From a virus, in the IMG/VR virus record IMGVR_UViG_3300045988_116821: a stretch of 42,713 bases of DNA. One strand, written 5' to 3'. Of the stretch, positions 1-42,713 are shown piece by piece. The translations under genes were made by a program, and so were the position numbers. A model generated the notes under the pieces. It had not been told where the DNA came from and did not search any database. It worked only from the letters and a program-made list of their open reading frames with translations. Positions within the stretch are counted from its first letter, which is position 1. Each line of letters opens with the position of its first letter.

Positions 1-55
1 GTAACGGAGCCGCGCTGGTATCCAGCCTCACGGTCATAGTCGCCCATTCCCTGAA
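1..55. repeat. 55-bp exact terminal duplication, identical to 42659..42713 (circular closure overlap)
   Basis: Direct comparison of window start and end; every base identical. Confidence 0.95.
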
Positions 56-2283: not shown

Positions 2284-3856
2284 TTGCTATTCTCCTTACA
2301 TAGTCTGCATCTGTTGGATTGCATTGAATCAGAATCCCCGTCTCAGGATCTAATGAGACTGTTCCATGTCTGCCAATATATTTCTGGCTTTTTCTTGAAT
2401 CAGGATCCGTTCTCGTAGGAAATACTTTCGCCGGATTCTCCAGCGCATCCCGTATTCCTTCCACGGTAACTCCTGATCGTGATCTTCCCGTTTTTGGATC
2501 TTTCATGGTTCCGATTACTCTGTCCATGAAATGTTTACTCTGTCTGGTTACTGCTGTTCCCTCAGAAGTCTTTATACCAACAACTTTTTCATTGATTTCA
2601 TCATAAATCTTCTGATAATTCTCGAATCCAGATAACGGAGATATCGTGCCTTTATCTACAGAACGTGCATAAGTCCTGAGCAGTTCCCACTTCTCAGGTT
2701 CATTATACTTCATTTCCTGGAAGTCTGCAAAATGTTTCGGCATGTCTTTTCCAAGAAGTTCCCGATACCGCTCATACTGCTTCCGGTCTGACGAAGCGTT
2801 CTTGACTGCTTTCTCCTGGGCTTCTGCTTTTAGATTTCCTTTGACGTATTTCTCATACCACTGTTCATAGGTCATATCCGCAGGAACCATCTCTGTACGC
2901 CCTGTTTCCGGGTTGTAAGCACTTCTTTTCATGTTCCTGAGGATTTTATCATCTATGACAGAAATCGTTGTAGAGCGGCAATATGGATGCATGGGAGGAT
3001 AGTTCACTCCGGCTTTCCGGTCTTTCACCGAAAAAACCTTTCCATCCAGTTCCCGACAGATCTCACTGGTACGAAGATCCAGCACTGCCACATAGCGATA
3101 ATTCTTGATCCCGCAGTCAATATAACTCTGTGCAGTCAATTCTCCTGCCATGTAACAGGATTCTGTTCTTACCAATCGCCTGGCCTGCTTTGCTCCCCCT
3201 CCGCACTGGGCCTGGATGGATTCCGCTGTTTCCCGGTCTGTCCGGCCGGTAAGGAGGCTGATCAGCAATTCATCCTTCAAGGAATCTGCAAGCTGCTGTG
3301 TGTTCTGCCAGATACGGTCTGAAAAATGTTTTCCGGACCATTTCATCTGCAGAGCCTGGTCGATCTGTTTCCTGCTTACATGAGAAAAACTGAATGCCAG
3401 GCCGGTTTCTTTCTGCATATTGTAGATGGAATGATAATAGGCTTTTTCTCCAAGCTGTTCCAGAAGTCTGGTATCGAACTGCTTCTCCTGCTGATATACC
3501 TGCTGCATCACTGCATCTACCTGTGTCATAAGATCCTGCAGGCGTTCCATTCTTGCACGGTACGCCGGAGCTTCCAGTTGTTTCAGAATCTCACTGTCCT
3601 TTTTCCTGTTCTGGAGTTCCTGTTTCAGCTGATCAATGGAGTTTTTATCCTGTATGGAATTTATAATCTGCCAGGCTTCTGTTTCTGACAGACCATATTT
3701 TGTCATGAACTTCTCAAAGATATCTCTTGCGGCATATTCCAGCTGGAGAGAGGCTTTCCGGTATACTCTGGCAATGAGATCTGCTGTCTCTTCTGCATCC
3801 TCCATAAACTGATACATATCCCAGGCAGATCTCTGCTCCCAGTATTTCCTACTCAT
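2264..3856 (-). CDS. Head morphogenesis protein, MuF / SPP1 gp7 family, with a ~230-aa C-terminal extension
   Basis: RTSEICRELDGKVF...NYPPMHPYCRSTT motif at aa 262-296; follows the portal gene; 530 aa total. Confidence 0.85.
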   Translation of the reverse strand: MSRKYWEQRSAWDMYQFMEDAEETADLIARVYRKASLQLEYAARDIFEKFMTKYGLSETEAWQIINSIQDKNSIDQLKQELQNRKKDSEILKQLEAPAYRARMERLQDLMTQVDAVMQQVYQQEKQFDTRLLEQLGEKAYYHSIYNMQKETGLAFSFSHVSRKQIDQALQMKWSGKHFSDRIWQNTQQLADSLKDELLISLLTGRTDRETAESIQAQCGGGAKQARRLVRTESCYMAGELTAQSYIDCGIKNYRYVAVLDLRTSEICRELDGKVFSVKDRKAGVNYPPMHPYCRSTTISVIDDKILRNMKRSAYNPETGRTEMVPADMTYEQWYEKYVKGNLKAEAQEKAVKNASSDRKQYERYRELLGKDMPKHFADFQEMKYNEPEKWELLRTYARSVDKGTISPLSGFENYQKIYDEINEKVVGIKTSEGTAVTRQSKHFMDRVIGTMKDPKTGRSRSGVTVEGIRDALENPAKVFPTRTDPDSRKSQKYIGRHGTVSLDPETGILIQCNPTDADYVRRIANGNAKI

Positions 3857-9494: not shown

Positions 9495-9581
9495 TCGGAA
9501 CGGATGGATTCGAACCATCGCCATCGACTTCATCAGTCAATTTCTGGTTACACAGTTGCTCTGCCACTAAGCTACGTTCCA
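9495..9581 (-). tRNA. tRNA-like gene (~87 nt) with canonical acceptor, D and T arms and an extra arm, but no canonical anticodon stem; isotype not assignable
   Basis: Acceptor TGGAACG/CGTTCCG; TA; D arm GCTT-AGTGGCA-GAGC; T arm GATGG-TTCGAAT-CCATC; 6-bp arm TTGACT-GATGA-AGTCGA. The 17 nt at the anticodon-arm position (ACTGTGTAACCAGAAAT) do not form a 5-bp stem. Confidence 0.5.
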
Positions 9582-12431: not shown

Positions 12432-12697
12432 TCTCCCCTCCCTGCTGCCCTCAGCATCCACTTCCGGTACCTGTCCCATTCTGCCAGGAGTTCAACATCT
12501 AAAACCTTGCTCAATTTGATATCCTCCGGAATGATCCGGTATTTCTTGTTCACAAGAGCAAAATTTGCTGCTGCCTGGGCTACGTTGTTCTTTGTGCAGC
12601 CAGTCTTTTCTGTGACCTGTTTAGCCGTCAGAAGATTCTCAAACACTTGCTTCCCGTTCTGGTCTACTACCTTATACAGGTTCATCCTCTTTCTCAT
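12374..12697 (-). CDS. HTH-like small protein (107 aa)
   Basis: ATG 12697 with SD GGAGGAAG; LTAKQVTEKTGCTKNNVAQAA segment. Confidence 0.55.
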   Translation of the reverse strand: MRKRMNLYKVVDQNGKQVFENLLTAKQVTEKTGCTKNNVAQAAANFALVNKKYRIIPEDIKLSKVLDVELLAEWDRYRKWMLRAAGRGEWIGGRKRNCSTENVDTGL

Positions 12698-13079
12698 TTT
12701 CTTCCTCCAGGCAGTTTTCTCCGAATATTCGCATAAAATCTTCTCTACTGCCGATTTTCTCTTCAAACGCTTTCTGTGCAATCCGCTTTAGTACATCGTT
12801 AACTTCCCGGTACTTATGAGCAGATATCCTGCCTTCTTTATGATGTTCTAGACACAGATGAACCGTAAGGCCACACCAGTCTGAATTATCTCTGTTTCTA
12901 CTTCCGAAGAAAATATGATGATTTTCTATGTTTATATGACTTCCGCATATATAACATCTATCTTTTCTATCTCCAGGAATAATACTTTCCCTCTGTCTTT
13001 TACATGGATATTTCCAAGCTTTTGACCTCTTTCTTTTTTTCTTTCCCTGTTTTGGGAATTTCAAGTTATCGTAATTCAT
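12672..13079 (-). CDS. HNH/NinG-like Cys-His protein
   Basis: CYICGS...ENHHIFFGSRNR...LCLEHH pattern. Start ATG 13079 preferred over the track start GTG 13103. Confidence 0.5.
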   Translation of the reverse strand: MNYDNLKFPKQGKKKRKRSKAWKYPCKRQRESIIPGDRKDRCYICGSHINIENHHIFFGSRNRDNSDWCGLTVHLCLEHHKEGRISAHKYREVNDVLKRIAQKAFEEKIGSREDFMRIFGENCLEEENEKEDEPV

Positions 13080-13086
13080 TTTCCGT

Positions 13087-13104
13087 GTGTCCGAATCGGA
13101 CACC
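13087..13104. repeat. GTGTCC-N5-GGACAC palindrome, copy 1 (parS-like candidate)
   Basis: GTGTCCGAATCGGACACC; 88 nt downstream of the parB-like stop, between an SD and the next ATG. Confidence 0.85.
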
Positions 13105-13113
13105 CTCCTTTCC

Positions 13114-13146
13114 CCTGCCGCATTTCTGACAGGCTCGTGCGGCAGG
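13114..13146. other. 9-bp GC-rich hairpin CCTGCCGCA-N15-TGCGGCAGG
   Basis: Perfect arms at 13114..13122 and 13138..13146; no T-run on either strand. Confidence 0.7.
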
Positions 13147-13191
13147 ACTGATGGGTTTATATGTTAAGCGGTTTTTCGAAAACACCCTTGT

Positions 13192-14910
13192 TTATTCTTC
13201 TCGACAATCTTTGACAAGATTCTTGATCAATCTCAATCCTGCTGTGATTAATTGCTGTCTCATAATCTCCATGCGCGGCATCCCTGGTTCTTCCTTTTCC
13301 ACTTCAAGGATTTCCCTGAGTTTTCGCTCTTCATCGTACAAGTATCCAGTTATTTCTATTTCTGTCGGAATTGGGATGTCCTTCAGTTCCGGCGGCCAGG
13401 CATCTGGCATGTCGGTAGTATCACCGAAATGGTCTGCGGTTTTGGTATCTTCAACAGAATCGTGCTGCTTTTCGTCTGGTGTTTCCGCTACCGATTGGCA
13501 GCGTTCTTCTTCATCGAACTTGGAATCCCATGGATCGTAAAGTTTCTTTGCTTCTGCAATCAGTTTTCCGTACTTCATGGACACTTTTTCTTTTCCAATT
13601 TCAATCTCCAGTCCTGCGTTAAATCCCATGAATGTATATCCAACCTCAGGTCCAGTACATCCGTGGTATCCATACGGTGCAATTCTCTTTTGCGCTGCTC
13701 GGGCAGCATCTCCATTGTTATTGTATAGCCTGCATATTCTCATGATTGTTTTTAATTTTTCAGGATATGCCCCACAGAATGCTTTTACTGCTGCTGATAT
13801 TGCTGATATTGTGTCTTCCGTCTTCTCCGGTGTATCTACAGGTACCATCTTGACCGGTTTCTTATGCCCATATTTCCTGATCAGGATCTTGGCCAGGGAC
13901 TGCCAGGACAGCTCGTGTTCAAATACCCCTCCTGGATTAAAGGTGATCCCGGCGGTTGATCCTTGGTAATTGAGGTGTCCGTTTCGGACACGTGCTGATC
14001 CATACAAGTTCGAAAGCATGAAGATGGTCATGTTCTTGTCTTCCTGGATGATGTAGTTCTTCATGTTCTTGTTTGTGCTCTCATAGAAACGCTCAATCTG
14101 TGTCTCTGCCGGAATCTCCGTATCATCTTCCGGAGGTCTGTTCTGGCCGGTTGCTGTTTCGATGGTCATCTGGCCAGGAATACCTTTCTCTGCTTCCTGC
14201 TGCCGGTACAGGTCTCTGATATCATCCAGTGTCAAGACCCCTGCTTCTTCGTATAACTCGCAAGCCTGTTTCTGATATTCTTTATTGAGTTTTGACACTT
14301 CATAGGCCACGGAAATCTTGATCCTGTCTTCTTTAAATTCTGACATCAGCTGCTCACAGAGGTTTGTGCTAATCGAATGGTATCTTCCCAGCTGACCGCC
14401 GGACGTTCCGATCAGGTCTTTCAGGATGTCTCTTGTCTTTCCTTCCATCGGTGATTTCTCACGGAGTTCTTTCACAAGGCCTTCCATCTTGAGCGTTTCA
14501 GTCATTTTTTCCCAGTCGGATTTATCACGATAACAGTTCGCCTGGATGATCATGATCTGGCGTACTATGTCGTTTTCCTGACCCGCATCCTGTTCCAGTT
14601 TCGATTGTGTTTTATATATACATGGAACCCGGCTGAATCTGTCATTTCCTTCATTGAGCAGATCAATACAGCACTTCCGGCGGCAATGGCCGGCTATAAC
14701 GTAATCCTTCCCATCCCTGTTCTCGATCAGGAGCGGTTGAAGGATCCCCAGAAGCTTGATCGACTGTTTCAGCCTTTCAAGCTTCTCTGTGTTGTAGAAG
14801 TTTTCTTCTGACGGGATCAGATCTTTTGGATTTCGGTATACGATCTTCTGGTCCTGCTGCCGGTCCGGGACTGATCTGTCATTGAGAAGTCCTTTCAGAT
14901 CAAATTTCGC
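13192..14910 (-). CDS. parB: ParB-like N-terminal domain protein with a large uncharacterised C-terminal region
   Basis: LGILQPLLIENRDGKDYVIAGHCRR ParB/Srx-type motif; start overlaps the ParA stop; ATG 14910 with SD GGAGA. Confidence 0.7.
   Translation of the reverse strand, partial: AKFDLKGLLNDRSVPDRQQDQKIVYRNPKDLIPSEENFYNTEKLERLKQSIKLLGILQPLLIENRDGKDYVIAGHCRRKCCIDLLNEGNDRFSRVPCIYKTQSKLEQDAGQENDIVRQIMIIQANCYRDKSDWEKMTETLKMEGLVKELREKSPMEGKTRDILKDLIGTSGGQLGRYHSISTNLCEQLMSEFKEDRIKISVAYEVSKLNKEYQKQACELYEEAGVLTLDDIRDLYRQQEAEKGIPGQMTIETATGQNRPPEDDTEIPAETQIERFYESTNKNMKNYIIQEDKNMTIFMLSNLYGSARVRNGHLNYQGSTAGITFNPGGVFEHELSWQSLAKILIRKYGHKKPVKMVPVDTPEKTEDTISAISAAVKAFCGAYPEKLKTIMRICRLYNNNGDAARAAQKRIAPYGYHGCTGPEVGYTFMGFNAGLEIEIGKEKVSMKYGKLIAEAKKLYDPWDSKFDEEERCQSVAETPDEKQHDSVEDTKTADHFGDTTDMPDAWPPELKDIPIPTEIEITGYLYDEERKLREILEVEKEEPGMPRMEIMRQQLITAGLRLIKNLVKDCREE
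13974..13991. repeat. GTGTCC-N5-GGACAC palindrome, copy 2 (inside the parB-like gene)
   Basis: GGTGTCCGTTTCGGACAC. Confidence 0.85.
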
Positions 14911-15682
14911 CATCGTCTTCATCTCCAATCATATCCAGGTACTCATTCACAAGGGTTTCATAGTCTTCTGCTGCCGCTGATCTGGGACTGTGCAGGGCTA
15001 CAGGCATGCGCACGAATGTGCTCCTTGCTACTACACCGGAAAAGCGTATCTTCGTTCTCATGATCGGGTACTGTTCTTCTATGATCTCCGCTCCCTGCAG
15101 GTGCGCCTGGTTGAATTTCTGATATTTTGTTATAAAGCAGCGCACGTTCTTCAGATCCGGATTCAATTCTTCTTTTACATCATCGATCTGATCCAGAAGC
15201 TCGTTCATACCTTCCAGCGTGTTATCATCTACTTCTACCGGAATCAGGACATCGTCTGCGGCAGTCAGGGCGTTGATCACCGACACATTGATATCCGGAG
15301 CATTATCGATCACGCAGAAATCGTAATTATCGGCTACCTGCTGCAGTGCCTTTCTCAACCGGTTCTGCTGTGGGCGTACACGGTCCATGGTTACTTCCAT
15401 GTTTGCAGTCAGGAGACCAAGGTTTGCTGTGATGATATCCAGATGCAGATAGTCAGTCTTGTTGATCAGTTTTTCCATATCCGGATGCCGGTCTACCATG
15501 ATCCGGTCAATCCCTTCCCCATCCTGGGTACGGCGGTTCATTCCACGTGAACAGTCCCCCTGCTTGTCATTATCAACCAGAAGCACCTTGTATCCTTTCC
15601 GCATCAGTATGTATGCGATGTTAATGCTTGATGTGGTCTTGGCCACACCGCCCTTTAAATTGATGATTGCTATTGTTCTCAT
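14900..15682 (-). CDS. parA: ParA/Soj-type partition ATPase
   Basis: MRTIAIINLKGGVAKTT deviant Walker A; ATG 15682 with SD AAGGAGG. Confidence 0.85.
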   Translation of the reverse strand: MRTIAIINLKGGVAKTTSSINIAYILMRKGYKVLLVDNDKQGDCSRGMNRRTQDGEGIDRIMVDRHPDMEKLINKTDYLHLDIITANLGLLTANMEVTMDRVRPQQNRLRKALQQVADNYDFCVIDNAPDINVSVINALTAADDVLIPVEVDDNTLEGMNELLDQIDDVKEELNPDLKNVRCFITKYQKFNQAHLQGAEIIEEQYPIMRTKIRFSGVVARSTFVRMPVALHSPRSAAAEDYETLVNEYLDMIGDEDDGEI

Positions 15683-15692
15683 GATATCCTCC

Positions 15693-16094
15693 TTATCTTT
15701 CCTCTCCCATGCTGCATCCATCATTTTCTCTCAACTGTACAGCTGGAAGGCCAAACCCTCTACAATAGTGATATCCTGACTTTCCTTTAGCTCTGTACCT
15801 GCAGTCTTTGCAGAGTGTGATCTTACGATATCTGTTCATAAGCTGACCGGTCTGGCTCTTATCAAAGTTATTGATCTTCTCATATTCCTCCCGGATTCTG
15901 TCAGCATACTGTTGTAATCCGCAACGTCCGCATATCCTGTCCATCAAATCTCCCTGCATTTCTTCTCGAAACCAGCACAATTCATCGCAGACATATGCCA
16001 TTAATTTCTCAAGGATGCCGTCTATGCCTTCGTCTTCGTTCCTTGTCTGCTCTCTGCATCCATTCTGGTTTTCCTCCGATCGGTTCATCATCAA
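15693..16094 (-). CDS. Cys-rich (zinc-finger-like) hypothetical protein
   Basis: CGRCG and CKDCRYRAKGKSGYHYC patterns. Confidence 0.55.
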   Translation of the reverse strand: MMMNRSEENQNGCREQTRNEDEGIDGILEKLMAYVCDELCWFREEMQGDLMDRICGRCGLQQYADRIREEYEKINNFDKSQTGQLMNRYRKITLCKDCRYRAKGKSGYHYCRGFGLPAVQLRENDGCSMGEER

Positions 16095-16233
16095 ACCATA
16101 TCCCTCCTTTTTCGTCTTTGTAGTATGTAAACCGGATACCTGACTTAATAATGGTACCCAGACATTCCATTGTTAATATGTCCTGTTCCGGGCGCAGGCT
16201 CCAGCCCTTGCCCCAGTATTCTTCCACATTCAC
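16009..16233 (-). CDS. Hypothetical protein (74 aa), overlaps both neighbours
   Basis: GTG start with GGAG upstream; ends of these three ORFs overlap, so boundaries are uncertain. Confidence 0.4.
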   Translation of the reverse strand: MNVEEYWGKGWSLRPEQDILTMECLGTIIKSGIRFTYYKDEKGGIWFDDEPIGGKPEWMQRADKERRRRHRRHP

Positions 16234-16657
16234 GGTGCTTCATCTCCTCTCGCAGCCATGCTGAATAACTGTGTTTCTCTGTTTTTGCGGTGATTTCGTG
16301 TGGATCCGGAAGCTGATTTATAGCTTTAAACAGTCTGCACCATTCCTCTCTGTTCGCGATCGGCTTTCCTTTTGTGTCCAACCAGCCGGATCCGGCCATT
16401 TCCGTGATCTTTCCCAGGCGACTTGTAACATACAGATCGCTTATGTAAAAGCACACGTCACAGGTTCTCGTCATGTGATCCAGTGCATCCACCATGGTAA
16501 GCAATATGGCCTGATGATATGTTCCAGTTACCCTTCCAAAATGCTCCCTTGTCTCTTTCCCTGTCCGGAGCTGAGTCGACAGCACATATCCGCATTTTCT
16601 TTCCACATTTCCGCGAAACCGGCTGCTTGTCTCAATAAAAACATTTACTTGCTGCAT
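16145..16657 (-). CDS. RNase H-like fold protein
   Basis: VNVFIETSS / TYHQAILLTMVDAL / CFYISDLYV / GWLDTKGKPIANREEW blocks align by eye to RNase HI. Confidence 0.55.
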   Translation of the reverse strand: MQQVNVFIETSSRFRGNVERKCGYVLSTQLRTGKETREHFGRVTGTYHQAILLTMVDALDHMTRTCDVCFYISDLYVTSRLGKITEMAGSGWLDTKGKPIANREEWCRLFKAINQLPDPHEITAKTEKHSYSAWLREEMKHRECGRILGQGLEPAPGTGHINNGMSGYHY

Positions 16658-16658
16658 G

Positions 16659-17483
16659 TTATTCCCTTCTCTTCTCTGTTTTGATTAATATGTAATGCCG
16701 GTATGCGTATCCTGTTATCTTGTTTTTCCCGCATTTTACTGAGTTTGGCACGATCGCCCAGCCTTTTGGCGGCTTCGGATCTCGCGGCCTTCCATGCTTG
16801 TCCAGCAAGCTTCTTCTGTTTATCTCTTCTTTTTCTGGATCTTTGCGGATTAGATTCCTGGACGGGTGATACCGTTTCAGATCTTCCGGCTCATGATCCT
16901 GCAGCGGCTTGGTTATGTACTGTGCTAGTTCTCCAGAATCAACGTCATACACCCTTTTTGTCTGTGCATGGCCATGTTCCCAGAGTGTTTCTACCAGCAG
17001 GCCTGTGTCTGTTTCATCGTTTGACTTCCGATTGATTAAAACATGTACATGGGGTCCTCCATTCTTCCCGATTTCTAACCGGTATATATACTTCAGTTCC
17101 CATCCATATTTTTTATACTTGTCCCGGAGCTTTCGAATGAATTTTGACATATCTTTCTGCATCTGTTTCCAGGGCGGCCGTGAGCCTTTCTTGTACGTCA
17201 GCGTGAACCAGTAATCTCCTATTCCGAAATTCCACTTGATCAGCCTGCGAACATCTCTTTCTCTTTTCCATTGATTTTGCTTTGCAATTTCTTCCGGGGT
17301 AGCTTTCCGTCTTTTCTGGCGTTTCTGTCCCCTGGCACCATATCTTCCTGTATGTTTTTCTTCTACTTCTCTGGTGTTCCCACAGTCCCAGGTCTGCCTT
17401 ATATACCCACACTTCATAAAAGTGTCCCTCGTCTCATCTCTAATACGTTTAATCAAGCCTGCAAGGGGATCTTGTCCCCTCAA
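16659..17483 (-). CDS. rep: HUH rolling-circle replication initiator (Rep)
   Basis: FTLTY (motif 1), GPHVHVLI (HUH), ELAQYITKP (catalytic Tyr). Track start is TTG 17483; ATG 17417 (SD GAGGGA) is an alternative. Confidence 0.75.
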   Translation of the reverse strand: MRGQDPLAGLIKRIRDETRDTFMKCGYIRQTWDCGNTREVEEKHTGRYGARGQKRQKRRKATPEEIAKQNQWKRERDVRRLIKWNFGIGDYWFTLTYKKGSRPPWKQMQKDMSKFIRKLRDKYKKYGWELKYIYRLEIGKNGGPHVHVLINRKSNDETDTGLLVETLWEHGHAQTKRVYDVDSGELAQYITKPLQDHEPEDLKRYHPSRNLIRKDPEKEEINRRSLLDKHGRPRDPKPPKGWAIVPNSVKCGKNKITGYAYRHYILIKTEKRRE

Positions 17484-17523
17484 AAAAAGGTTAAAAATAT
17501 AGCGGTATATAACCGCCGGATGC

Positions 17524-17552
17524 TTGACTTTCCGGCTCCCTGGTGTTATATT
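17524..17552 (+). promoter_or_regulatory. Plus-strand promoter TTGACT-N17-TGtTATATT
   Basis: -35 at 17524..17529, TG at 17544..17545, -10 at 17547..17552. Confidence 0.6.
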
Positions 17553-17558
17553 TTATGT

Positions 17559-17623
17559 AAACTTATTTTCTCCAGGGGCCGGATGGTCCTGGCTCAAGCG
17601 GTGCAACGCCTGAGCCTTTTTTT
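17559..17623 (+). ncRNA. Predicted ~65-nt countertranscript-like RNA antisense to the rep upstream leader
   Basis: Promoter above; hairpin CCAGG..CCTGG (17572..17592); terminator GGCTCA.GCG-GTGCAA-CGC.TGAGCC (17591..17616) followed by TTTTTTT. Confidence 0.5.
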
Positions 17624-17669
17624 CTTTTACCTCTTGATTTCTTCTGTGAATTTGATATACTGAATTTGT

Positions 17670-17876
17670 CTAATTATTCAAGCCCTTTACATTTGCAGAT
17701 GTGAGGGCTCTTTTTATTACTCTGGTTTTGTCCTCCAGCCATGTAATTGTGATCATGGCCACGATCGTTATGCAGATACTTCCTGTCAGAAATGTGAGCT
17801 TATCGCCCCAGTCCCAGAGTGGAAGTAATGCTACGAGTTGGCCTGTAATCAGGCTGATGATCACATTCTTTTGCAT
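17670..17876 (-). CDS. Small membrane protein (68 aa)
   Basis: Two hydrophobic segments; SD GAGGAGGTG. Confidence 0.6.
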   Translation of the reverse strand: MQKNVIISLITGQLVALLPLWDWGDKLTFLTGSICITIVAMITITWLEDKTRVIKRALTSANVKGLNN

Positions 17877-17891
17877 CTTTGTTCACCTCCT

Positions 17892-18047
17892 CTACCCCAC
17901 TGATTTTCTTATGTAATAATCATTGACTATCCGGGATACGTTATCTATGATCTTCTGATTGTCTTCCGGAGTATTGTTCTTGCAGTAATCGTCATGGATC
18001 CGGATTACTCCTCCGGATCCGTTTTTGATTTCTTTGATAACTGCCAT
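17892..18047 (-). CDS. Hypothetical small protein (51 aa, MAVIKEIKNGSGGVIRIHDDYCKNN...)
   Basis: Found by hand; SD AGGAGGTG 6 nt before ATG 18047. Confidence 0.6.
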   Translation of the reverse strand: MAVIKEIKNGSGGVIRIHDDYCKNNTPEDNQKIIDNVSRIVNDYYIRKSVG

Positions 18048-22982: not shown

Positions 22983-23066
22983 CCAAGTAGCAAAGGTCGG
23001 AAAGGCTCCCGACACACTCGCAAGAGTACCTGAGATGATAGATACGCCGCCCATCTTGTTACTTGG
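22983..23066 (+). ncRNA. Candidate structured RNA (multi-helix junction) of unknown class
   Basis: P1 CCAAGTAGCAA/TTGTTACTTGG (11 bp, one G-U) encloses GTCGG..CCGAC, ACTC-GCAA-GAGT (GNRA loop) and GATG..CATC. Confidence 0.45.
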
Positions 23067-24155: not shown

Positions 24156-24327
24156 ACATATAAAAACCGCCCCAGTACGCCAATACCGGGACGGTGGTGG
24201 ATCTCCGAAGAGATATCCGTTTTCAGCAAAAATATTGTATCATCTTCGGAGCGGCTGCACAATCAGAACATTTGTGTGGTCGTTATTTTTGTACCCATTT
24301 TTACATATTTTAAACCGAGGTGATATT

Positions 24328-25896
24328 ATGGAACTTTTAAATGTATGTATCTACCTGCGTAAGTCCCGTGCTGATCGGGAGGCTGAAGCCCGAGGTGAAG
24401 GCGAAACTCTCGCCCGACACGAGCGGATCCTGCTGGATCTTGCAAAAAAGCGTGGCTATAATGTAGGGGCGATCTATAAAGAGATTGTTTCCGGTGAGAC
24501 GATTTCTGCAAGGCCTGTTATGCAACAACTTCTTCGTGAAGTTGAATCCGGTATGTGGGATGGTGTCCTTGTTGTTGAAGTGGAACGTCTGGCTAGAGGC
24601 GATACCATTGACCAGGGTGTTGTTGCCAGATCTTTCCAATACTCCAACACATTAATCATTACTCCACTTAAAACTTACGATCCAAACAACGAATACGACG
24701 AAGAGTATTTTGAATTCGGACTTTTTATGTCCCGGCGTGAATACAAGACCATTCGCCGCCGTCTCACTGCAGGTCGCGAATCTTCCGCAAAAGAAGGAAA
24801 ATATTGCGGCAGTAAGCCGCCTTATGGATATTCCCGTGTAAAACTTGTTGGTGAAAAAGGATGGACACTGCAGCCTGTTCCTGACCAGGCAGAGATTGTC
24901 AAGCTTATATTCAATTTATATGTCCATGGAGTATCCGGCGAACGAATTGGAATGGCTAAGATCTGCCGTAAATTAAATGATTCCGGAATCAAGACCATGG
25001 ATGGTGGCCTATGGACCATTTCTCGTGTGCAGGCAATTCTCAGAAATCCAGTATATGAAGGAATGATACGATGGAACAGTCGGAAAGCAGTAAAGCATAT
25101 AAAGGATGGGCAAATAACTATCTCCCGTCCTTTCGCTCAGGATTATATTCTTGTCAAAGGCAGGCATCCTGCTATTGTATCAAGGGAACTCTTTCAGCAA
25201 GCTCAAGATATCGTAAACAAAAATCCTGCACGGCCGCTTAACTCTTTGCATGTTCTTCGTAACCCTCTTGCCGGTATTGTTCGTTGTGGAAAATGTGATC
25301 ATGTTATGACTCGTAAATCCCCTAATGGAAGACAGGGTGATCTGATCCGGTGCCCATACAGTTCTTGTAGCAATATAAGCAGCAAGCTTCCTCTTGTTGA
25401 AAAGGCTCTTCTTGACGGAATCCAGGAGCTTGTAGATGGCTACAGACTAAATAACAGTGTTTCCGATCAGGAGTATTCTCTTTCTATTTCTGAAAGAGAA
25501 AAAATGATTCAAGGAAAATTAAAAGAAATTGATATTTTAAAGAAAAGGAAACAAAGGCAGTATGATCTTCTTGAACAGGGAATTTACTCCACGGAAGAAT
25601 TTCTTGAACGCTCCCGTGCTACTGCTGCCGAGCTGTCTGCCTGCGATGCAGTAATTCTTTCTCTGAAGCAAGAAATTGAACATGAACAGGAACTTCAGTT
25701 TCAACGTTCCTCTTTTATTCCCAAGTGCGAGGATCTTCTCGCAAATTACTGGACGTGGGATACCTCTACAAAGAACCGATTTCTCCGTGAACTGATAGAA
25801 AAGGCTGTTTATACTAAAAACGCAAAAAATACATGGAAAAATGGCGATGACATCTCTTTTACTTTAGATATTTATCCAAAAATCCAGCAAAAGTAA
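24328..25896 (+). CDS. int: Large serine recombinase (integrase or resolvase)
   Basis: N-terminal catalytic VCIYLRKSRAD, recombinase domain, zinc ribbon CGKCDH...CPYSSC, C-terminal coiled coil; ATG 24328 after SD GAGGTG. Confidence 0.9.
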   Translation: MELLNVCIYLRKSRADREAEARGEGETLARHERILLDLAKKRGYNVGAIYKEIVSGETISARPVMQQLLREVESGMWDGVLVVEVERLARGDTIDQGVVARSFQYSNTLIITPLKTYDPNNEYDEEYFEFGLFMSRREYKTIRRRLTAGRESSAKEGKYCGSKPPYGYSRVKLVGEKGWTLQPVPDQAEIVKLIFNLYVHGVSGERIGMAKICRKLNDSGIKTMDGGLWTISRVQAILRNPVYEGMIRWNSRKAVKHIKDGQITISRPFAQDYILVKGRHPAIVSRELFQQAQDIVNKNPARPLNSLHVLRNPLAGIVRCGKCDHVMTRKSPNGRQGDLIRCPYSSCSNISSKLPLVEKALLDGIQELVDGYRLNNSVSDQEYSLSISEREKMIQGKLKEIDILKKRKQRQYDLLEQGIYSTEEFLERSRATAAELSACDAVILSLKQEIEHEQELQFQRSSFIPKCEDLLANYWTWDTSTKNRFLRELIEKAVYTKNAKNTWKNGDDISFTLDIYPKIQQK

Positions 25897-25994: not shown

Positions 25995-27428
25995 TTATTT
26001 TGTCTTTGCCTTCACATGTTCGATCACCTTTTTCCAGGAATCAATACCACAGGTTCCACTTACCTTTACGCCTGTGTTTTTCTGGAAAACTTTCAGGGAT
26101 GTTTCTGTATCGTCTCCGAAACGGCCATCCACAGTAACACCAAGTACAGACTGCAGCACAGAAACTGCAACGCCGGAATTCCCTTTCCGGATGATTGGAA
26201 GCTGGGTCTCAAACTTTCCCGTCAGAACTACTGCCTTTTTTGAAGTCTGTACCGGATACACTGCTTTTCCGTTCCAGTCATAGATGGTGTATCCCTGTTT
26301 CCACTCTTTCTTTGCATTCTCAAGGCTCTTGTATGCTCCGATCTGGCTCTTGCTGTCAGCCCAGGACTTTCTTGTGCGATAATACTTATCTACCGTCGGT
26401 GTGTCGGTCTTAGCTCCGATCAGCTGCTTGAACCGGTTCCAGTCACCTTTTGCACGGATTGCTGACGGGCAGTTCTTTGCACATACATCATAATGCTGCA
26501 CAACTCTGTCTGCCGGGATTCCCAGCTGTTTCATAAGCTGTTTGCACACCTGGACTGTATTCTGGAAAGCTTTCTCGTAGTTATAGCCCGCCTGAACGCA
26601 CATCTCGATTCCTACTGAATTTCTGTTGTTGACAGTACCGAACAGCCGACCGCCGTAGTTGACGCCCACGTGCCATGCTCCACGGTTGTATGGAAGCGCC
26701 TGATACGCTTCTGTGTCGTCCACATATACATGTGCAGAATATCCCTTAAAGTTGCCATCATGCTGTGCTTTTGCATGCGCTTTCGCATTTGCACCCTTGG
26801 CATAGTTATCCGTGTTGTGAATTACGATATATGCCGGTTTCTGACCTGCATAGCTATTGTTGTTACTGATAAGGCTTGTGTTGATATTCATGGTATTACT
26901 CTCCTTTTCTGTTTTTGATGTCTTGATAGATAATATGCCATTCAGGATGTTGATGATTTTCTGTCCGTAGTTCTTTCCGGATGCCCAGCCCTGACCTTTG
27001 GGATTTTCCTGGATGCCGAGATGCTCAACATACTCAGCGCAGCCTCTTGATACGTATGTATATCGCGGGTCAATACATTTCTGTTTCAGTCCGTCTGTAC
27101 AAGCGTAAGCCTGCAGATGCTGGATCTGCGCCCTGATTCCTTCTTTCGCAGTTTTGAAGCTGCAGCCTTTCTTTCCTGTGACGTTCACACCTAATCCGCA
27201 GAAATTATTCTGATCAAGTGTTACTGCTGATCCCGAAAACGTGAAGTTTCCTGTTTCCAAACAGGACTGGGCAAAAGCAATGTCACCACGCACGCCCTCT
27301 TCCGTGCCTTCCGTGATATACAGAGGAATCATCTTTGTGACCGAATCGGACACCTGTGGATTTACTTTTTTGATGTAAACCTTCATCTGTTCAACGCTGG
27401 CCTGTGGGGTTCCCATGATCTTTATCAT
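25995..27428 (-). CDS. Multidomain endolysin: glucosaminidase + N-acetylmuramoyl-L-alanine amidase + cell-wall-binding domains
   Basis: FAQSCLETGNFTFSG (glucosaminidase-like), YIVIHNTDNY...AHVYVDD (Amidase_2-like), C-terminal PG_binding_1-like NSGVAVSVLQSVLGVTVDGRFG. Confidence 0.85.
   Translation of the reverse strand: MIKIMGTPQASVEQMKVYIKKVNPQVSDSVTKMIPLYITEGTEEGVRGDIAFAQSCLETGNFTFSGSAVTLDQNNFCGLGVNVTGKKGCSFKTAKEGIRAQIQHLQAYACTDGLKQKCIDPRYTYVSRGCAEYVEHLGIQENPKGQGWASGKNYGQKIINILNGILSIKTSKTEKESNTMNINTSLISNNNSYAGQKPAYIVIHNTDNYAKGANAKAHAKAQHDGNFKGYSAHVYVDDTEAYQALPYNRGAWHVGVNYGGRLFGTVNNRNSVGIEMCVQAGYNYEKAFQNTVQVCKQLMKQLGIPADRVVQHYDVCAKNCPSAIRAKGDWNRFKQLIGAKTDTPTVDKYYRTRKSWADSKSQIGAYKSLENAKKEWKQGYTIYDWNGKAVYPVQTSKKAVVLTGKFETQLPIIRKGNSGVAVSVLQSVLGVTVDGRFGDDTETSLKVFQKNTGVKVSGTCGIDSWKKVIEHVKAKTK
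27337..27354. repeat. GTGTCC-N5-GGACAC palindrome, copy 3 (one mismatch; inside the endolysin gene)
   Basis: GTGACCGAATCGGACACC; shares CCGAATCGGACACC with copy 1. Confidence 0.75.
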
Positions 27429-28108: not shown

Positions 28109-28124
28109 ATTGCGCCGGCGCAAT
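28109..28124. repeat. GC-rich palindrome copy B (ATTGCGCCGGCGCAAT)
   Basis: Contains the same 16-mer as 1183..1198; lies between a terminator and the first lysis-cassette gene. Confidence 0.9.
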
Positions 28125-28512: not shown

Positions 28513-31500
28513 CTAAAATGTGATTTTTATACTTGCCATGATAGCGCAAGTATCATTATTCACAATGTTCTTAATATCAGTGTCAGTAAAACCATTACTA
28601 TCAATTCCCATTTTAGCTCTAACGTTTAATCCGTTACGCCCTCCTATAACCGCAGCTGTATACGATGCCGGTTTTATAGGTTTTGAAGCAGTCGAGTTAT
28701 ATATATACTTTCCATTTTGCCGAATCGTGAGTCCATTTATACTTGATATCGAAACTTTGGTGGACATAATTGGTCGGGAAAATGGAATAAGAAAAATGAC
28801 TTCCTGTTTATTTGATGTAACATATCCATTTACATAAAACTCCATATTTATTACGTCGTCAGCGCGATAATATGGTCTTAATGTACCGCTAAACTTACTG
28901 CCGTCGGGACGATCCAGTGTATATTCGCCGAATTTAATAATAAAATCACCTGGCGTTATTATTCCGTTTCTAATAAATGCATAGCCATCATCAACTGCGA
29001 ACCAGGGATAATAATCAACAGCACCTGTATTACTTCCAACCACAAGCGGGCAATCTGAATAAGTATATTGCATATTACTGCTTAATGGGTATCCTATTCG
29101 TACTCGTTCGCCAAATTCGGCCTTATTTCCGATTTGAATTCCATTTTTAGTCGGTTTCATATATATATTCCCAAACTTCAAGCTGCTCTCAATCTCACCG
29201 GAGTTGATATGGAATACCTTTCCTGTGATCCAGGCAGTTGCGTCGGAATCGGGGGTTATGGCGGTTTCGCTGGTGCCTTTGAACTGGATGGAATCATTGG
29301 TGATCTTCAATTTGTTTTTGGAATTGGAATGACCAAGTAAAATATTGCCACTTTCAAGAGTGATATATTTCTGATAAGTTCCAACTTCGGCGCCGTCAAC
29401 CATTGTGGCTGTTTTCCATTTAAACGCCCAATCGTTGTATGTTTTTACAAATTCAGAACTTATATCCACGTCTTTTTTCAGACCAGAGGCTAACGTGTAA
29501 GCATCTTCTGCCGTAGTTCGATATGCCAGTGACTGCTCAACACCATTCGTTGGCTTTGTGTCTTGTTTTGTAAAATTTGGATTCCATCCGCTGTAAATAC
29601 CAGATATGGTGTAATTTCCATTCCAGTATGTCCATGGAAGATATGTCCAAATTTCACACACATTCGATGCAGTTGCTCGTACACTAACCAGAAGGTCTTT
29701 AGTGTTCTGTCGTGTAACGCTTGCTCCAAATGCCGCCGTCGTACTTGCTTTGTCCTGCCACCCATCTTTTATGATGATCTCGGCTTGAGAATTTTGGCTT
29801 TCTGTCCCGTTGAAACCGTTTCCGGTCTGAAGAGTAATAACGACAACTGAAGCATCGCCGGCGGACGTGAGTGTCCCAAGTCGAACCCATTGCGCTTTGT
29901 TGTTTGCCCCGCCAAAAGAATAGCTCTTTGTCGCAATCTTGTTTAAAGCTTTTACTGAAGAATTGGCATTATCTGCTGATTTTTGGGCTGTGTCGATTTT
30001 ATTATCCACATCTTCAGGTGCAGGCGTCCAGTCTGTCGGAACGGTTCCGAACTCGCCTTTCACGTTTCGAATCTTGAATTTAATCGGAGATTTTGCGTCT
30101 GTAGTAATGATACCCCAGTTCGATGAAGCGTCAAATATATCATACAAAACATCTGTTCTGGGCGTGTACGAGAACCATACTCTTTGCCATTTATTGGCTA
30201 CCAACGAATGATCTGAAGATTTACGCAAGGACTGGTTATCATTGTCATTACCGGTCCCACTCGGCATTCCGTCGAAACCGTTATTTACGTCAGCATTCCA
30301 AATGCAGGCAACTTCAGGATTTACTTCCAGACTGATTATATATGTGTATCCTCGTGGAATGTAGATTTTCTTTACGCCAGTGTCGAAATAAATTCCTCGA
30401 CCCCATGAATTGGAACCAATCGGAGCCACACAAGTCCAGGTGTTTGATGCTTTATCATAAGAAAATGTTGATAATCCATTACAGTTTTTGATCATCCCTA
30501 CGGGAATTAAGTTTCTTCCACCGATTTTTATATTACCAATCATACTCTCAGCATCTTCTGGAGCTGGAGACCAATCCGTAGCAATGTTACCTTCTTCAAG
30601 TTTCAATCCGTATATTAAAAAGGCCGTATCCGTATCGCATTCAAATCGACATGTGGATATCGTTGCGTTTCCGCTATTGAAAGTTACTGAAACTCTTTTG
30701 TAATCGGTAGTGCCTACTTGAGAGTTTAGTATGCTGCCTGTCTGTGGAGAAGCACTATCATAGAAACGAAGGGTGCTTGTTTTCGTGGAATCTTCCCATT
30801 TTATGTAAGCAGACAACGTATAATACGTGTTGGGTTTAATAGTAACTCTTTGGCTAGCATCGACCCATGCCTTAGCTATTCGTTGAACACCAAATCCGTT
30901 CACTGTAGTATGCGGGACATCTACATGACATCGGAGACCTTCGTTATTATCAACCCAGAATGTATCATTTAGAGCATCATATTCTTTTGTTTTTTTCCAA
31001 AGATTTCTTCCGCCAACTTTCAGATTGTCAATTTTATTATTCGCACTATCAGCAGTACTTTTGGCAGCATTTGCCGTGGACGCTGCATTGGACGCGGTTG
31101 ATTTTGCTGTGTTTGCTGTACTATTTGCAGTATTTGCTGTGGACACGGCATTACTTGCGTTCGTATTCGCGGTAGATACTTTGCTGTCTACATCCTCTGG
31201 AGCTGGTGTCCAGGTAGTCGCCTGGGTTCCTTCTTCAATTTTGAAGTCTCGAATATATAGAATCTCGCCAACTTTGAAACCTAGATAGAATGTAAACGAA
31301 TAATACTCGGCATCTGTATATACCCAAGTATGCGAGAATTTCTTCCACGATGTAGTAAGTGAAATGTTCGTCTGTCCGCCGCTTTCGTGTCCGACAGAGC
31401 CTGATTTAGCAACGCTACATTTAGCCCAGAAAGACCAGGTGTACGTTTTACCAATCTTGTCAGCTGTTTTCTGGAATATCGGATAATGTGGACCAGCGCC

Positions 31501-40510: not shown

Positions 40511-41016
40511 ATATCCTCCAAATCTGACGCAAGGCTTCCGCCCAGCACCTTTAAGATCTGTTCTTCGTTATCCTTCATAGCCGGATACAGGAACGGATAG
40601 GCCGGATTTCCGCTGCATCTATAGAATCTTCCATCCGGCGTGTCCATATATGGCCAACGGTACTTTTCAGCCACTCTTCTGTCTATCTGGCTTTCATGGA
40701 TCCACCATGGCTGTTGAGTATAGACCGGAGTTACTTCCGGAGAGATGCCGGCATGTTTCTCCTGGCCTTTCGGTCCGGTTCCGAACTCTATGTACGGAGC
40801 ATAAGCTTTGTCTGTCCAGCAGATCCCTGTGACAGAGTTTTCTTCCTCTGTGGTTTCCGCAAAAATGCTCTGCCGGAGTTCTCCGGTATCTGCATGGCAA
40901 TTCTCAACTGCTGCTGACCGTACAAACTGGATCGCTTCTCCAACTGCCTGCCGGGTGTCCAACTCGGACACCTCCTGCAAAGCTTTCTCCACTTCATCAA
41001 ATCCATTTACACTCAT
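40507..41016 (-). CDS. HK97 gp10-like head-tail joining protein
   Basis: ATG 41016 with SD GAGGTGG; MSVNGFDEVEKAL... N-terminus typical of the family. Confidence 0.6.
   Translation of the reverse strand: MSVNGFDEVEKALQEVSELDTRQAVGEAIQFVRSAAVENCHADTGELRQSIFAETTEEENSVTGICWTDKAYAPYIEFGTGPKGQEKHAGISPEVTPVYTQQPWWIHESQIDRRVAEKYRWPYMDTPDGRFYRCSGNPAYPFLYPAMKDNEEQILKVLGGSLASDLEDI
40954..40972. repeat. GTGTCC-N5-GGACAC palindrome, copy 4 (inside the gp10-like gene)
   Basis: GGTGTCCAACTCGGACACC, 7-bp perfect arms. Confidence 0.85.
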
Positions 41017-41935: not shown

Positions 41936-42713
41936 GCTTTCGCCTCCTGGATGCTCAGATAGATGGAATCCAGTTTATTATCCAGAATCCACATATCATG
42001 GAAACGGCGGTAATCCATCTGCCATGCGTTCAATTTCTGGTTTGTTGTCGGGTCGAAGATACGCATGATATCCTGTTTTGTGACAGCGATTGGCGTGGTT
42101 ACAGGGCAGATGAAAAAGTTCAGGTTCTTTGCAGATGTTCCTTTTTCATATCCGCCTTTTTCCTGGCCACTATCTTTACCGTTATTGATCTTGATAGCTG
42201 TGTACATACGGTTGGAAGGTGTGGAAACCAGCGGTACACCATCTACAGAAGGAACCTGTGTCTGAATTCCGCCTTTAGAGAAGGTCACTGCAGTGATCTT
42301 GCCCGCAAGTTCCAGTTCCAGCTCCATAATAAAGTCCGGTGTTGCCTGGCAGATAAGAGCTCCGTTATAGTTTTCTCTTACCGCTTTGATCCCTTCTTTC
42401 AGCTTACGCAGAGCAGATGTAGAAGCAGTTCCCGGTACATAAGATTCTCCGATCATTCCTGCTTTATCTGCAGTAAGTGTTTCTGTGGCCAGCTTGCTGA
42501 TACGGTACGCATCGATCTCCGGAACTACCTGTGTCCTCTGGAACTCTCCCATAACTGCACCGGCAGTCGGGATAAAGTTTGCCTCGTTGATATCCATCGG
42601 ATCCAGCTGGAAGAGACGGCCACGGTCCTGTGTCATTTTTCTGGTCTCGTACTCCAGGGTAACGGAGCCGCGCTGGTATCCAGCCTCACGGTCATAGTCG
42701 CCCATTCCCTGAA
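41932..42713 (-). CDS. Major capsid protein, C-terminal part (continues from 1..206 across the circular junction)
   Basis: In frame with 1..206 through the overlap; stop at 41932. Confidence 0.85.
   Translation of the reverse strand, partial: QGMGDYDREAGYQRGSVTLEYETRKMTQDRGRLFQLDPMDINEANFIPTAGAVMGEFQRTQVVPEIDAYRISKLATETLTADKAGMIGESYVPGTASTSALRKLKEGIKAVRENYNGALICQATPDFIMELELELAGKITAVTFSKGGIQTQVPSVDGVPLVSTPSNRMYTAIKINNGKDSGQEKGGYEKGTSAKNLNFFICPVTTPIAVTKQDIMRIFDPTTNQKLNAWQMDYRRFHDMWILDNKLDSIYLSIQEAKA
42659..42713. repeat. 55-bp terminal duplication, second copy
   Basis: Identical to 1..55. Confidence 0.95.

Follow-up and report, generated by a model that had tools for sequence, protein, structure and literature searches.

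The phage genome recorded in IMG/VR as IMGVR_UViG_3300045988_116821 (42,713 nt; the whole stretch analysed is referred to here as the window) carries four scattered copies of the palindrome GTGTCC-N5-GGACAC, one inside a parB-like gene and one just beyond it, which raises the question of what recognizes them and what they do. An earlier note, made from the sequence by eye, had proposed that they are centromere (parS-like) sites. In the current study, comparison with related and unrelated replicons makes it probable that the four palindromes are the cognate binding or loading sites (predicted parS) of the ParB encoded by the phage. Sequence comparison indicates that the sites exist as such, are non-random, are constrained at the DNA level, and are associated exclusively with this family of ParA and ParB proteins; physical binding, dependence on cytidine triphosphate (CTP) and an output in partition are what we infer.

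An exhaustive search of the window for GTGTCC-N5-GGACAC with up to one mismatch returned exactly four copies, at 13087, 13975 and 40955 (exact) and at 27337 (one mismatch), and these are the four that had been picked out by eye. Site 1 (13087..13103, GTGTCCGAATCGGACAC) is exact and intergenic, and its extended end (13104) lies, as originally stated, 88 nt from the stop codon of parB (13192). The fixed 6+5+6 repeat first described holds for the arms, but site 1 is really a perfect 17-bp palindrome of 8-1-8 structure, GTGTCCGA-A-TCGGACAC, the general form of the site being GTGTCCGA-W-TCGGACAC. The other three copies do fall within the parB-like, endolysin and head-tail genes named in the note. 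Site 2 (13975..13991, GTGTCCGTTTCGGACAC) is an exact, 7-3-7 palindrome within the parB coding sequence, and is read on the minus strand as R-V-R-N-G-H. Site 3 (27337..27353, GTGACCGAATCGGACAC), the copy with one mismatch, lies in the endolysin coding sequence (minus strand, V-S-D-S-V-T) and is a hybrid of TGACC and TGTCC half-sites. Site 4 (40955..40971, GTGTCCAACTCGGACAC) is exact and lies in the coding sequence of the Neck1/tail-completion protein (minus strand, V-S-E-L-D-T); on the minus strand it consists of a CCGA half and a TTGG half.

The rarity of such a repeat by chance, which had been argued from its length, is borne out: four copies were observed against 0.03 expected, and none of 100 shuffled sequences reached four. 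The post hoc choice of pattern was allowed for by enumerating all inverted repeats in the window with 6-nt arms and spacers of 0-12. GTGTCC/GGACAC is the sole 6-nt-arm family with at least three exact copies, and a three-copy family of any kind arose in one of 60 dinucleotide shuffles. The half-site GTGTCCGA occurs seven times in the window (0.83 expected), and a search of the window with the relaxed pattern TGWCC-N5-GGWCA produced no convincing extra sites.

The sites persist among relatives that carry the same parAB genes. Close relatives keep all four copies, and those with ParB proteins of 41-48% identity keep the 17-mer or a variant of it. Site 1 is retained in all relatives with at least 69% ParB identity for which enough downstream DNA is available, and its surroundings show a constant arrangement of hairpin, AAAGGAGG, palindrome, 6-8 nt and ATG. 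Site 2 occurs in the majority of relatives whose ParB is at least 72% identical, sometimes with one mismatch, and has been lost from a few; the P0161 lineage has a similarly placed copy with one mismatch. Sites 3 and 4 are kept in relatives found by way of the 1993-aa putative tape-measure protein, site 4 being present in most of these and carrying one mismatch in two. At site 3, endolysin homologues with DNA identities of 74-82% share 16 of the 17 nt without variation, while nearby synonymous positions vary. In the relatives at 41-48% ParB identity, the identical 17-mer lies 2-4.6 kb downstream of parB, embedded in a homologue of the small HNH-like gene that follows parB and in another reading frame (..F-G-G-C-P-N-R-T-H..). 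Another clade has the symmetric variant TGACCGAWTCGGTCA, with up to four copies in about 9 kb around parAB. From clade to clade the 17-mer shifts to before, inside or after the HNH-like gene and, in different genes, is read in all three frames (VSDSDT, CPNRT, VRNGH). Since it is read in all three frames and moves relative to the neighbouring gene, the site is a DNA-level element.

By the same kind of comparison, the motif is not private to this phage but is a family-wide site, about 20 ParB lineages, down to approximately 22% identity, carrying the family palindrome in or beside parB. A scan of IMG/VR with the bare 17-mer recovered at least 114 loci of highly varied context and, among the matches listed, the window proteins most commonly present were ParB (29 loci), ParA (28), the HNH-like protein (21) and the replication initiator Rep (20). 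In very divergent par operons (L091, L148, L155, L101/L128, L110, L186 and L115/L147/L151) the 17-mer is found either where parA and parB meet or no more than about 50 nt from one end of parB. Enterocloster phage Saumur has GTGTCCGATTCGGTCAC in the 35-nt gap between parA and parB and two dispersed copies, and Flavonifractor phage Cormatin has the exact 17-mer 48 nt into parB plus three dispersed copies of TGTGTCCAAGTTGGACACA. On the Clostridium perfringens plasmid pCP13, GGTGTCCCCGGGGGACACC occurs in the parA-parB gap and again after the parB-PCP03 gene pair, and similar sites are present on plasmids pCPCPI75-1_2 and pCd5_2 (the latter from C. difficile), all of them in DNA of 24-25% GC. Across these unrelated replicons the palindromes occupy the parA-parB gap, the first 60 nt of parB, or the DNA just after it.

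The same association was seen when loci were selected without reference to the motif. Six ParB lineages were chosen by protein homology alone, through exact-protein look-ups (the alignment of diverse ParB proteins had no stretch conserved enough for a profile-based locus search), and in all six there is a family site, either at -35, +48 or +57 relative to the start of parB, within the gene, or following it. Likewise, each of five GenBank phage records with a ParB homologue has a family palindrome at or near parB. One form is the symmetric variant GTGCCCGA-K-TCGGGCAC; another, less similar, is GTGCGACA-N3-TGTCGCAC, in four dispersed copies in record MT835532. In this human-gut phage (MT835532.1, L274), with a ParB 28% identical to that of the window, the four copies, GGTGCGACA-N3-TGTCGCACC, are at 6306, 18021, 18681 and 26890. 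ParA and ParB are the only window proteins common to the five named site-bearing replicons compared, the ParB of pCd5_2 being detected by tblastn only (E = 7e-10). The density of sites was 97 per Mb in loci selected by ParB and 4.8 per Mb in the late regions of distant phages, for which the tape-measure protein served as the selection, against a chance density, estimated for uniform composition, of 3.8 per Mb. With regard to these data, the proposal of parS-like sites serving the adjacent ParB has gained support from both conservation and association with parAB, and the site, for which no description could be found, appears to be new and to serve a very large partition family of gut phages and clostridial plasmids, the ParABS kind of system being already known. 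Searches with the 17-mer, its 15-mer core and the AA(A/T)TT variant found no paper containing them in the literature collection covered, and the papers on Saumur and Cormatin, pCP13 and gut megaplasmids gave no description of the site.

Two further observations concern the arrangement and variation of the site. In some phages (IMG/VR loci L115, L151, L118 and L147) the exact 17-mer occurs as tandem pairs, the two copies being 38-39 bp apart. Such pairs are found at three different gene junctions, where their translation gives proteins repeated C-terminal tails of the form ..D-V-S-D-S-D-T-E.., and the contigs have up to five copies of the 17-mer within 5.5 kb around parAB. A covariation of the ParB recognition helix with the site variant (RYH with TGTCC, RYK with TGACC) is suggestive; as a strict rule it was rejected on the basis of mixed loci and counter-examples, and it is not used as evidence of specificity.

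Judged from profile matches and a structural model, ParA and ParB are genuine ParABS-type proteins, and ParB has a predicted ParB fold. Both genes are on the minus strand, parA (14900..15682) overlapping the start of parB (13192..14913) by 14 nt, with gene limits taken from the gene call in L267. ParA (260 aa) is a Walker-type ATPase with a deviant Walker A motif (KGGVAKT) and without an N-terminal helix-turn-helix (HTH). It matches AAA_31 (E = 6e-46), CbiA (E = 5.5e-18), ParA families and phrog_164 (E = 2.6e-55); the length of the protein is 260-274 aa, and the Walker A motif is almost at its N-terminus. The ParB-like protein has 573 aa, in which a ParB/Srx-type domain at the N-terminus is followed by an HTH (GTSGGQLGRYHSI) and then by a long extension at the C-terminus. 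It matches phrog_4715 (ParB-like partition protein) with E = 4.6e-41, while the match to Pfam ParB_N is weak (E = 1e-4; 22.6 bits, under the curated 26.3-bit cut-off); PF02195 is present in the precomputed annotation of most of the listed ParB homologues. The N-terminal domain carries GHCRR and N..R motifs, and GHCRR aligns with the GERR motif of Myxococcus xanthus ParB (PDB sequence match). Residues G80, H81, R83, N131, R134 and E140 are invariant across 39 diverse ParB homologues, H81 being replaced by E in plasmid ParBs in a wider, 7-sequence alignment, and a helix of the form G.S..Q..RY..I is conserved. An AlphaFold2 model of residues 1-300 (mean confidence, pLDDT, 76) matched ParB, Noc, KorB and Spo0J structures in Foldseek over about 220 columns (E = 1e-8 to 1e-5), including ParB-CDP (6sdk, E = 1.7e-8), Noc (7nfu, TM score 0.54 normalised to target), Caulobacter ParB (6t1f), Spo0J (1vz0) and KorB (8qa8/8qa9). 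The aligned structures span both the nucleotide-binding N-terminal domain and the DNA-binding HTH domain. Features of a type I ParABS system found here are a KGGxxK[ST] ParA beside parB, a ParB with the N-terminal fold and HTH, and conserved palindromic sites in cis.

The ParB family is large: of 8,000 candidates scored, more than 3,500 protein clusters matched its profile at E <= 1e-10. Its carriers are temperate phages of abundant human-gut Clostridia (Blautia, Enterocloster, Flavonifractor) and plasmids of C. perfringens and C. difficile. Within ParB, the C-terminal half (residues ~250-578, about 330 aa) behaves as a separate, shuffled module; in the other Blautia elements L077, L078 and L082 it is fused to a different N-terminal domain, with no parA upstream.

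A ParB dimer would be expected to read the two half-sites, (G)TG(T/A)CCGA, through its HTH. By analogy with other ParBs that have GxxR and N..R motifs, it would then close into a CTP-dependent clamp and spread from each site, and the small Walker-type ParA would use the resulting complexes to position or segregate those copies of the phage genome that are not integrated. Such copies could arise on excision or in the course of Rep-driven replication, or could belong to an episomal carrier state. Site 1, the perfect palindrome after parB, would be the primary site, with site 2 (in parB) and sites 3 and 4 (in late genes) as secondary loading points, and the four together would put ParB at three roughly equidistant points of the 42.66-kb circle. 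Partition of the non-integrated genome is the likely output.

That the four copies reflect codon usage or an assembly artefact has next to no chance of being right. Three of them are read in the same V-S-x-x-D/V-T frame, and the single shuffle mentioned above did give some three-copy family, but the excess over expectation is large and the sites recur in many independent assemblies, isolate genomes and plasmids; the conservation data effectively refute this explanation. Palindromes could also act as RNA hairpins in the leftward transcripts, as a bridge across a split ribosome-binding site at site 1 and as stabilizers, processing sites or terminators elsewhere. This is very unlikely as an account of the sites. 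On the minus strand, the palindrome of site 1 lies exactly between the AAAGGAGG Shine-Dalgarno sequence (13104-13111) and the ATG (13077-13079) of the HNH-like gene, which are 24 nt apart, and a hairpin of its 17 nt would restore the spacing to 7 nt; the arrangement is kept with two different downstream open reading frame (ORF) alleles. As RNA, the four copies fold with -5.2 to -9.2 kcal/mol, site 1 having the value of -9.2 and site 3 being weak at -5.2. In other phages the 17-mer is often just 5' of a Shine-Dalgarno sequence or forms the core of terminator-like hairpins (aaagcc...ggcttt), and the symmetric double changes found among the sites (TGACC/GGTCA and TGCCC/GGGCA) would keep the pairing of an RNA stem as well. 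Against such a role, three of the four copies in the window are inside coding sequences, and the palindrome runs to its centre in three inner variants (GA-TC, AA-TT and CC-GG, divided here at the centre), positions 8 and 10 staying complementary though unable to pair in a hairpin. Hybrid sites whose stem would be mispaired as RNA are conserved (site 3 and the Saumur sites), and it is one specific sequence, not just any hairpin, that recurs across replicons of 24% to 62% GC, always beside parAB. No Rfam family reaches its gathering score at any of the four sites, and a scan of 12500-17900 for terminator-like structures returned nothing at sites 1 or 2. Because of the central complementarity, the conserved hybrids, the single recurrent sequence and the lack of an Rfam match, recognition of duplex DNA by a symmetric dimer is favoured, and a secondary role of site 1 in RNA, as the hairpin of a split ribosome-binding site, is possible. 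A conserved structure with a 10-bp stem and 15-nt loop (13113..13147, minus strand, with no U tract after it) lies between the parB stop and the Shine-Dalgarno sequence of site 1.

Among DNA-binding proteins, the sites could be operators for one other than ParB, such as a repressor (with stoperators), the Rep origin-binding initiator, the HNH-like protein, the serine recombinase, terminase or a host factor, which is highly improbable. The dispersed placement at gene junctions can be likened to mycobacteriophage stoperators, Rep and the HNH-like gene co-occur with the site at the 20-21 loci noted above, and the site stays near the HNH-like gene as it moves around it. Yet Rep, the HNH-like protein, repressors, recombinase and terminase are either absent from pCP13-type plasmids or not shared with Saumur and Cormatin, multiple rolling-circle origins would disrupt replication, and an attP or pac site is single-copy. 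Rep is an unlikely binder because it is not common to the site-bearing plasmids, and a Rep origin, attP, pac site and HNH target were all rejected on these grounds. A general host-factor site is made less likely by the chance-level density of sites in the distant phage late regions (control phages taken without regard to host). A different question is whether ParB binds the sites to some end other than partition, namely KorB-like silencing by a sliding clamp, or genome organisation (late-gene access, loading of SMC, folding). This we regard as unlikely, although for an integrating phage it is an alternative to be taken seriously. It would suit an element that integrates and does not strictly require a centromere, with sites in or beside late genes and spread about evenly round the circle, and the integrated, inducible prophages Saumur and Cormatin share both the parAB site and the dispersed copies; the ParB fold, moreover, matches KorB as well as ParB and Noc. 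On the other hand, parB is in every case accompanied by a neighbouring gene for its cognate ParA ATPase, the hallmark of segregation systems, and the same sites flank parAB on true plasmids (pCP13, pCd5_2). No sigma-70-like promoter was predicted around site 1, and the PHROG and Pfam annotation of the neighbouring genes includes no KorA-like partner (no further search was made). Several findings do weigh against the sites being ParB-bound centromeres. A centromere is not obviously needed, since the phage integrates, and the output could be regulation or genome organisation. Most of the 114 or more 17-mer loci are short parts of their contigs, and about 70 of them do not show whether ParB is encoded elsewhere on the contig. 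At some loci TGACC sites accompany a single TGTCC site, whichever type of recognition helix is present. Site 1 forms a stable RNA hairpin placed where translation could be affected, and terminator-like copies exist in some other elements, among them the second copy on pCP13. A more speculative and distinctly unlikely combination is that in integrating prophages of gut Clostridia, ParB and its dispersed, roughly equidistant sites are not mainly a plasmid centromere but a CTP-clamp system that coats or folds the whole phage genome. Such a system would silence the genome of the lysogen or arrange it in three dimensions, or else put replicating genomes in position ahead of packaging. Site 1 would then have a dual role, loading ParB as DNA and, as RNA, forming the split ribosome-binding-site hairpin of the first gene after par, which would couple ParB occupancy or par read-through to the switch to the late region.

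The element that carries these four predicted ParB sites is a temperate siphovirus-like phage of the Blautia/Lachnospiraceae type. Its assembly is circular: the ends share a terminal direct repeat of 55 bp (window 1-55 and 42659-42713), relatives are contiguous across the end-to-start junction, and the genome is in fact 42,658 bp long. Its late operon wraps over the window ends on the circular genome. Annotated genes include the small and large terminase, an SPP1-type portal, a Mu-F-like head protein and scaffold, the Neck1/tail-completion protein and endolysin, and XRE/ImmA-type regulators, while the 1993-aa ORF (28513-34494) is the putative tape measure. The leftward early module has the order Rep, two small ORFs, ParA, ParB and the small Cys/His-rich HNH-like protein. 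Rep (16659..17417, minus strand) is a rolling-circle-type replication initiator (REP_ORF2-G2P). A large serine recombinase of 553 aa is encoded at 24235-25896 (phrog_95, E = 2.6e-105). Relatives of the phage are found in Blautia, Ruminococcus and Enterocloster genomes. An identical ParB is recorded on 380 contigs with lengths of up to 129 kb. Contigs of 69 kb and 81 kb have non-phage sequence past the recombinase of the prophage, and the ParB gene is also present in a 106-kb contig of a Blautia fusiformis isolate. The large serine recombinase and the presence of the ParB gene on longer contigs (69-129 kb) indicate that the phage integrates. The circular 42.66-kb assembly shows that a circular or concatemeric form exists, and says nothing of the prophage state. 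A megablast search of the par region against GenBank phages and PLSDB plasmids returned no close DNA relatives, and relatives there had to be sought at the protein level.

Some other features of the genome may be mentioned. With 13087-13991 counted as one, three site positions are nearly equidistant on the circle, the gaps being 13.4, 13.6 and 14.8 kb. For three random points the probability of a minimum gap of at least 0.313 is about 0.004, the equidistance being a post hoc observation. Contig 3300029425_000252 (L024 + L198) preserves this spacing; Saumur and Cormatin did not show it. A skipping-rope RNA (Rfam RF02924; 64.9 bits, gathering score 36.7) is located at 22986-23063 on the plus strand, in the rightward accessory region between metalloprotease-like and Ig-like-domain genes. 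At 9495-9581 (minus strand), flanked by regulator genes, is a tRNA-like gene (Rfam tRNA, 43 bits; ARAGORN, tRNA-Val with anticodon AAC), which at 87 nt is unusually long. One relative that is identical in other respects (L268, 18205-21221) has an interruption or extension of the large terminase gene, with weak hits to an intein-splicing domain (PF14890).

A second perfect palindrome, the 16-bp ATTGCGCCGGCGCAAT, occurs at 1182-1197 and 28109-28124, each time directly 5' of a Shine-Dalgarno sequence on the minus strand, and 31 of the loci retrieved contain its 14-nt core. In L077, L078 and L082 it is inside the chimeric gene in which the C-terminal region of ParB is preceded by an unrelated N-terminal domain. 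A cognate protein was sought by way of these chimeras, and the window has no homologue of their N-terminal domain.

For the large and uncharacterised ParA-ParB family described above, GTG(T/A/C)CC-N5-GG(A/T/G)CAC, with the core GTGTCCGAWTCGGACAC, is a candidate centromere site. The hosts of Saumur and Cormatin (Enterocloster clostridioformis YL32 and Flavonifractor plautii YL31, respectively) are cultivable strains of the OMM12 model community, and provide tractable systems. The 17-mer is a cheap annotation marker for the module, and could form a basis for ParB/parS DNA-labelling tools in anaerobes. It also raises the question of why an integrating prophage keeps a partition system with dispersed sites in the style of phage N15. 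The published putative parS of the pCP13 family of toxin plasmids may need revision.

Among known systems, one parallel is with phage T4, in which genes 38 and 25 have split ribosome-binding sites bridged by an mRNA hairpin. The likeness extends to site 1 only, where a strong Shine-Dalgarno sequence and the ATG, 24 nt apart, would be brought to 7 nt by the hairpin. KorB of RK2, with its 12 OB operators, is likewise a ParB-family clamp with many palindromes dispersed on a mobile element, and its structures (8qa8, 8qa9) are among the matches to the ParB model. The two systems differ in that no link between site and promoter was seen here (site 1 region), and that a ParA partner is always adjacent. 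With the chromosomal Soj/Spo0J type, which has a 16-bp parS (TGTTNCACGTGAAACA), the phage system shares a small Walker-type ParA that lacks an HTH, a ParB combining a CTPase-type domain at its N-terminus with an HTH, a single palindrome of 16-17 bp that is tolerated in coding sequence, with one copy within parB, and a site conserved across very divergent ParBs. The first parS of Bacillus subtilis was itself found inside spo0J. Unlike Soj/Spo0J, the phage system has another site sequence and an odd-length (8-1-8) palindrome, its ParB has an extra C-terminal region of about 300 aa, and it is carried by phages and plasmids rather than chromosomes.

Plasmid pCP13 has a homologous ParA (E = 3e-53), a ParB of about 31% identity over the N-terminal 240 aa, and palindromes with GTGTCC/GGACAC arms that flank parB. 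It differs in the inner bases of the site (CCGGG, compared with GAWTC here) and in being a conjugative plasmid, not a phage. The one published parS proposal found for pCP13 is a 117-bp region between parB and PCP03 that was assigned by its position alone and contains other inverted repeats (PMC4459074). In the pCP13 sequence (L270) this region, at 3032-3146, has a different palindrome, GGGAGAAAAATTTCTCCC, and the GGTGTCC...GGACACC pair that flanks parB and PCP03 lies outside the 117 bp as so described.

The closest functional analogue is phage N15, where the inverted repeats bound by SopB are four single sites, IR1-IR4, dispersed over the prophage (sequences in PMC7205306, Table 4). Here too, four single inverted repeats are scattered over a temperate phage genome, at 13.1, 14.0, 27.3 and 41.0 kb, three of them in coding sequence, and a ParB-family protein, predicted to bind them, is encoded beside a ParA ATPase. 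The palindrome arms of MT835532 closely resemble those of the N15 repeat, GTGCGACC-NN-GGTCGCAC. The parallel with N15, drawn from the start, holds for the dispersed, intragenic sites but not for the lifestyle of a plasmid prophage, in view of the serine recombinase and the contigs of up to 129 kb. Whereas the prophage of N15 exists in Escherichia coli as a linear plasmid and does not integrate, this phage is found integrated. The site sequence is also different, and ParA is small, of chromosomal type and without an N-terminal HTH. This ParA architecture, and the matches of ParB to chromosomal ParB, Noc and KorB, suggest that the system is not of the Sop type (Ia) represented by SopA/SopB.

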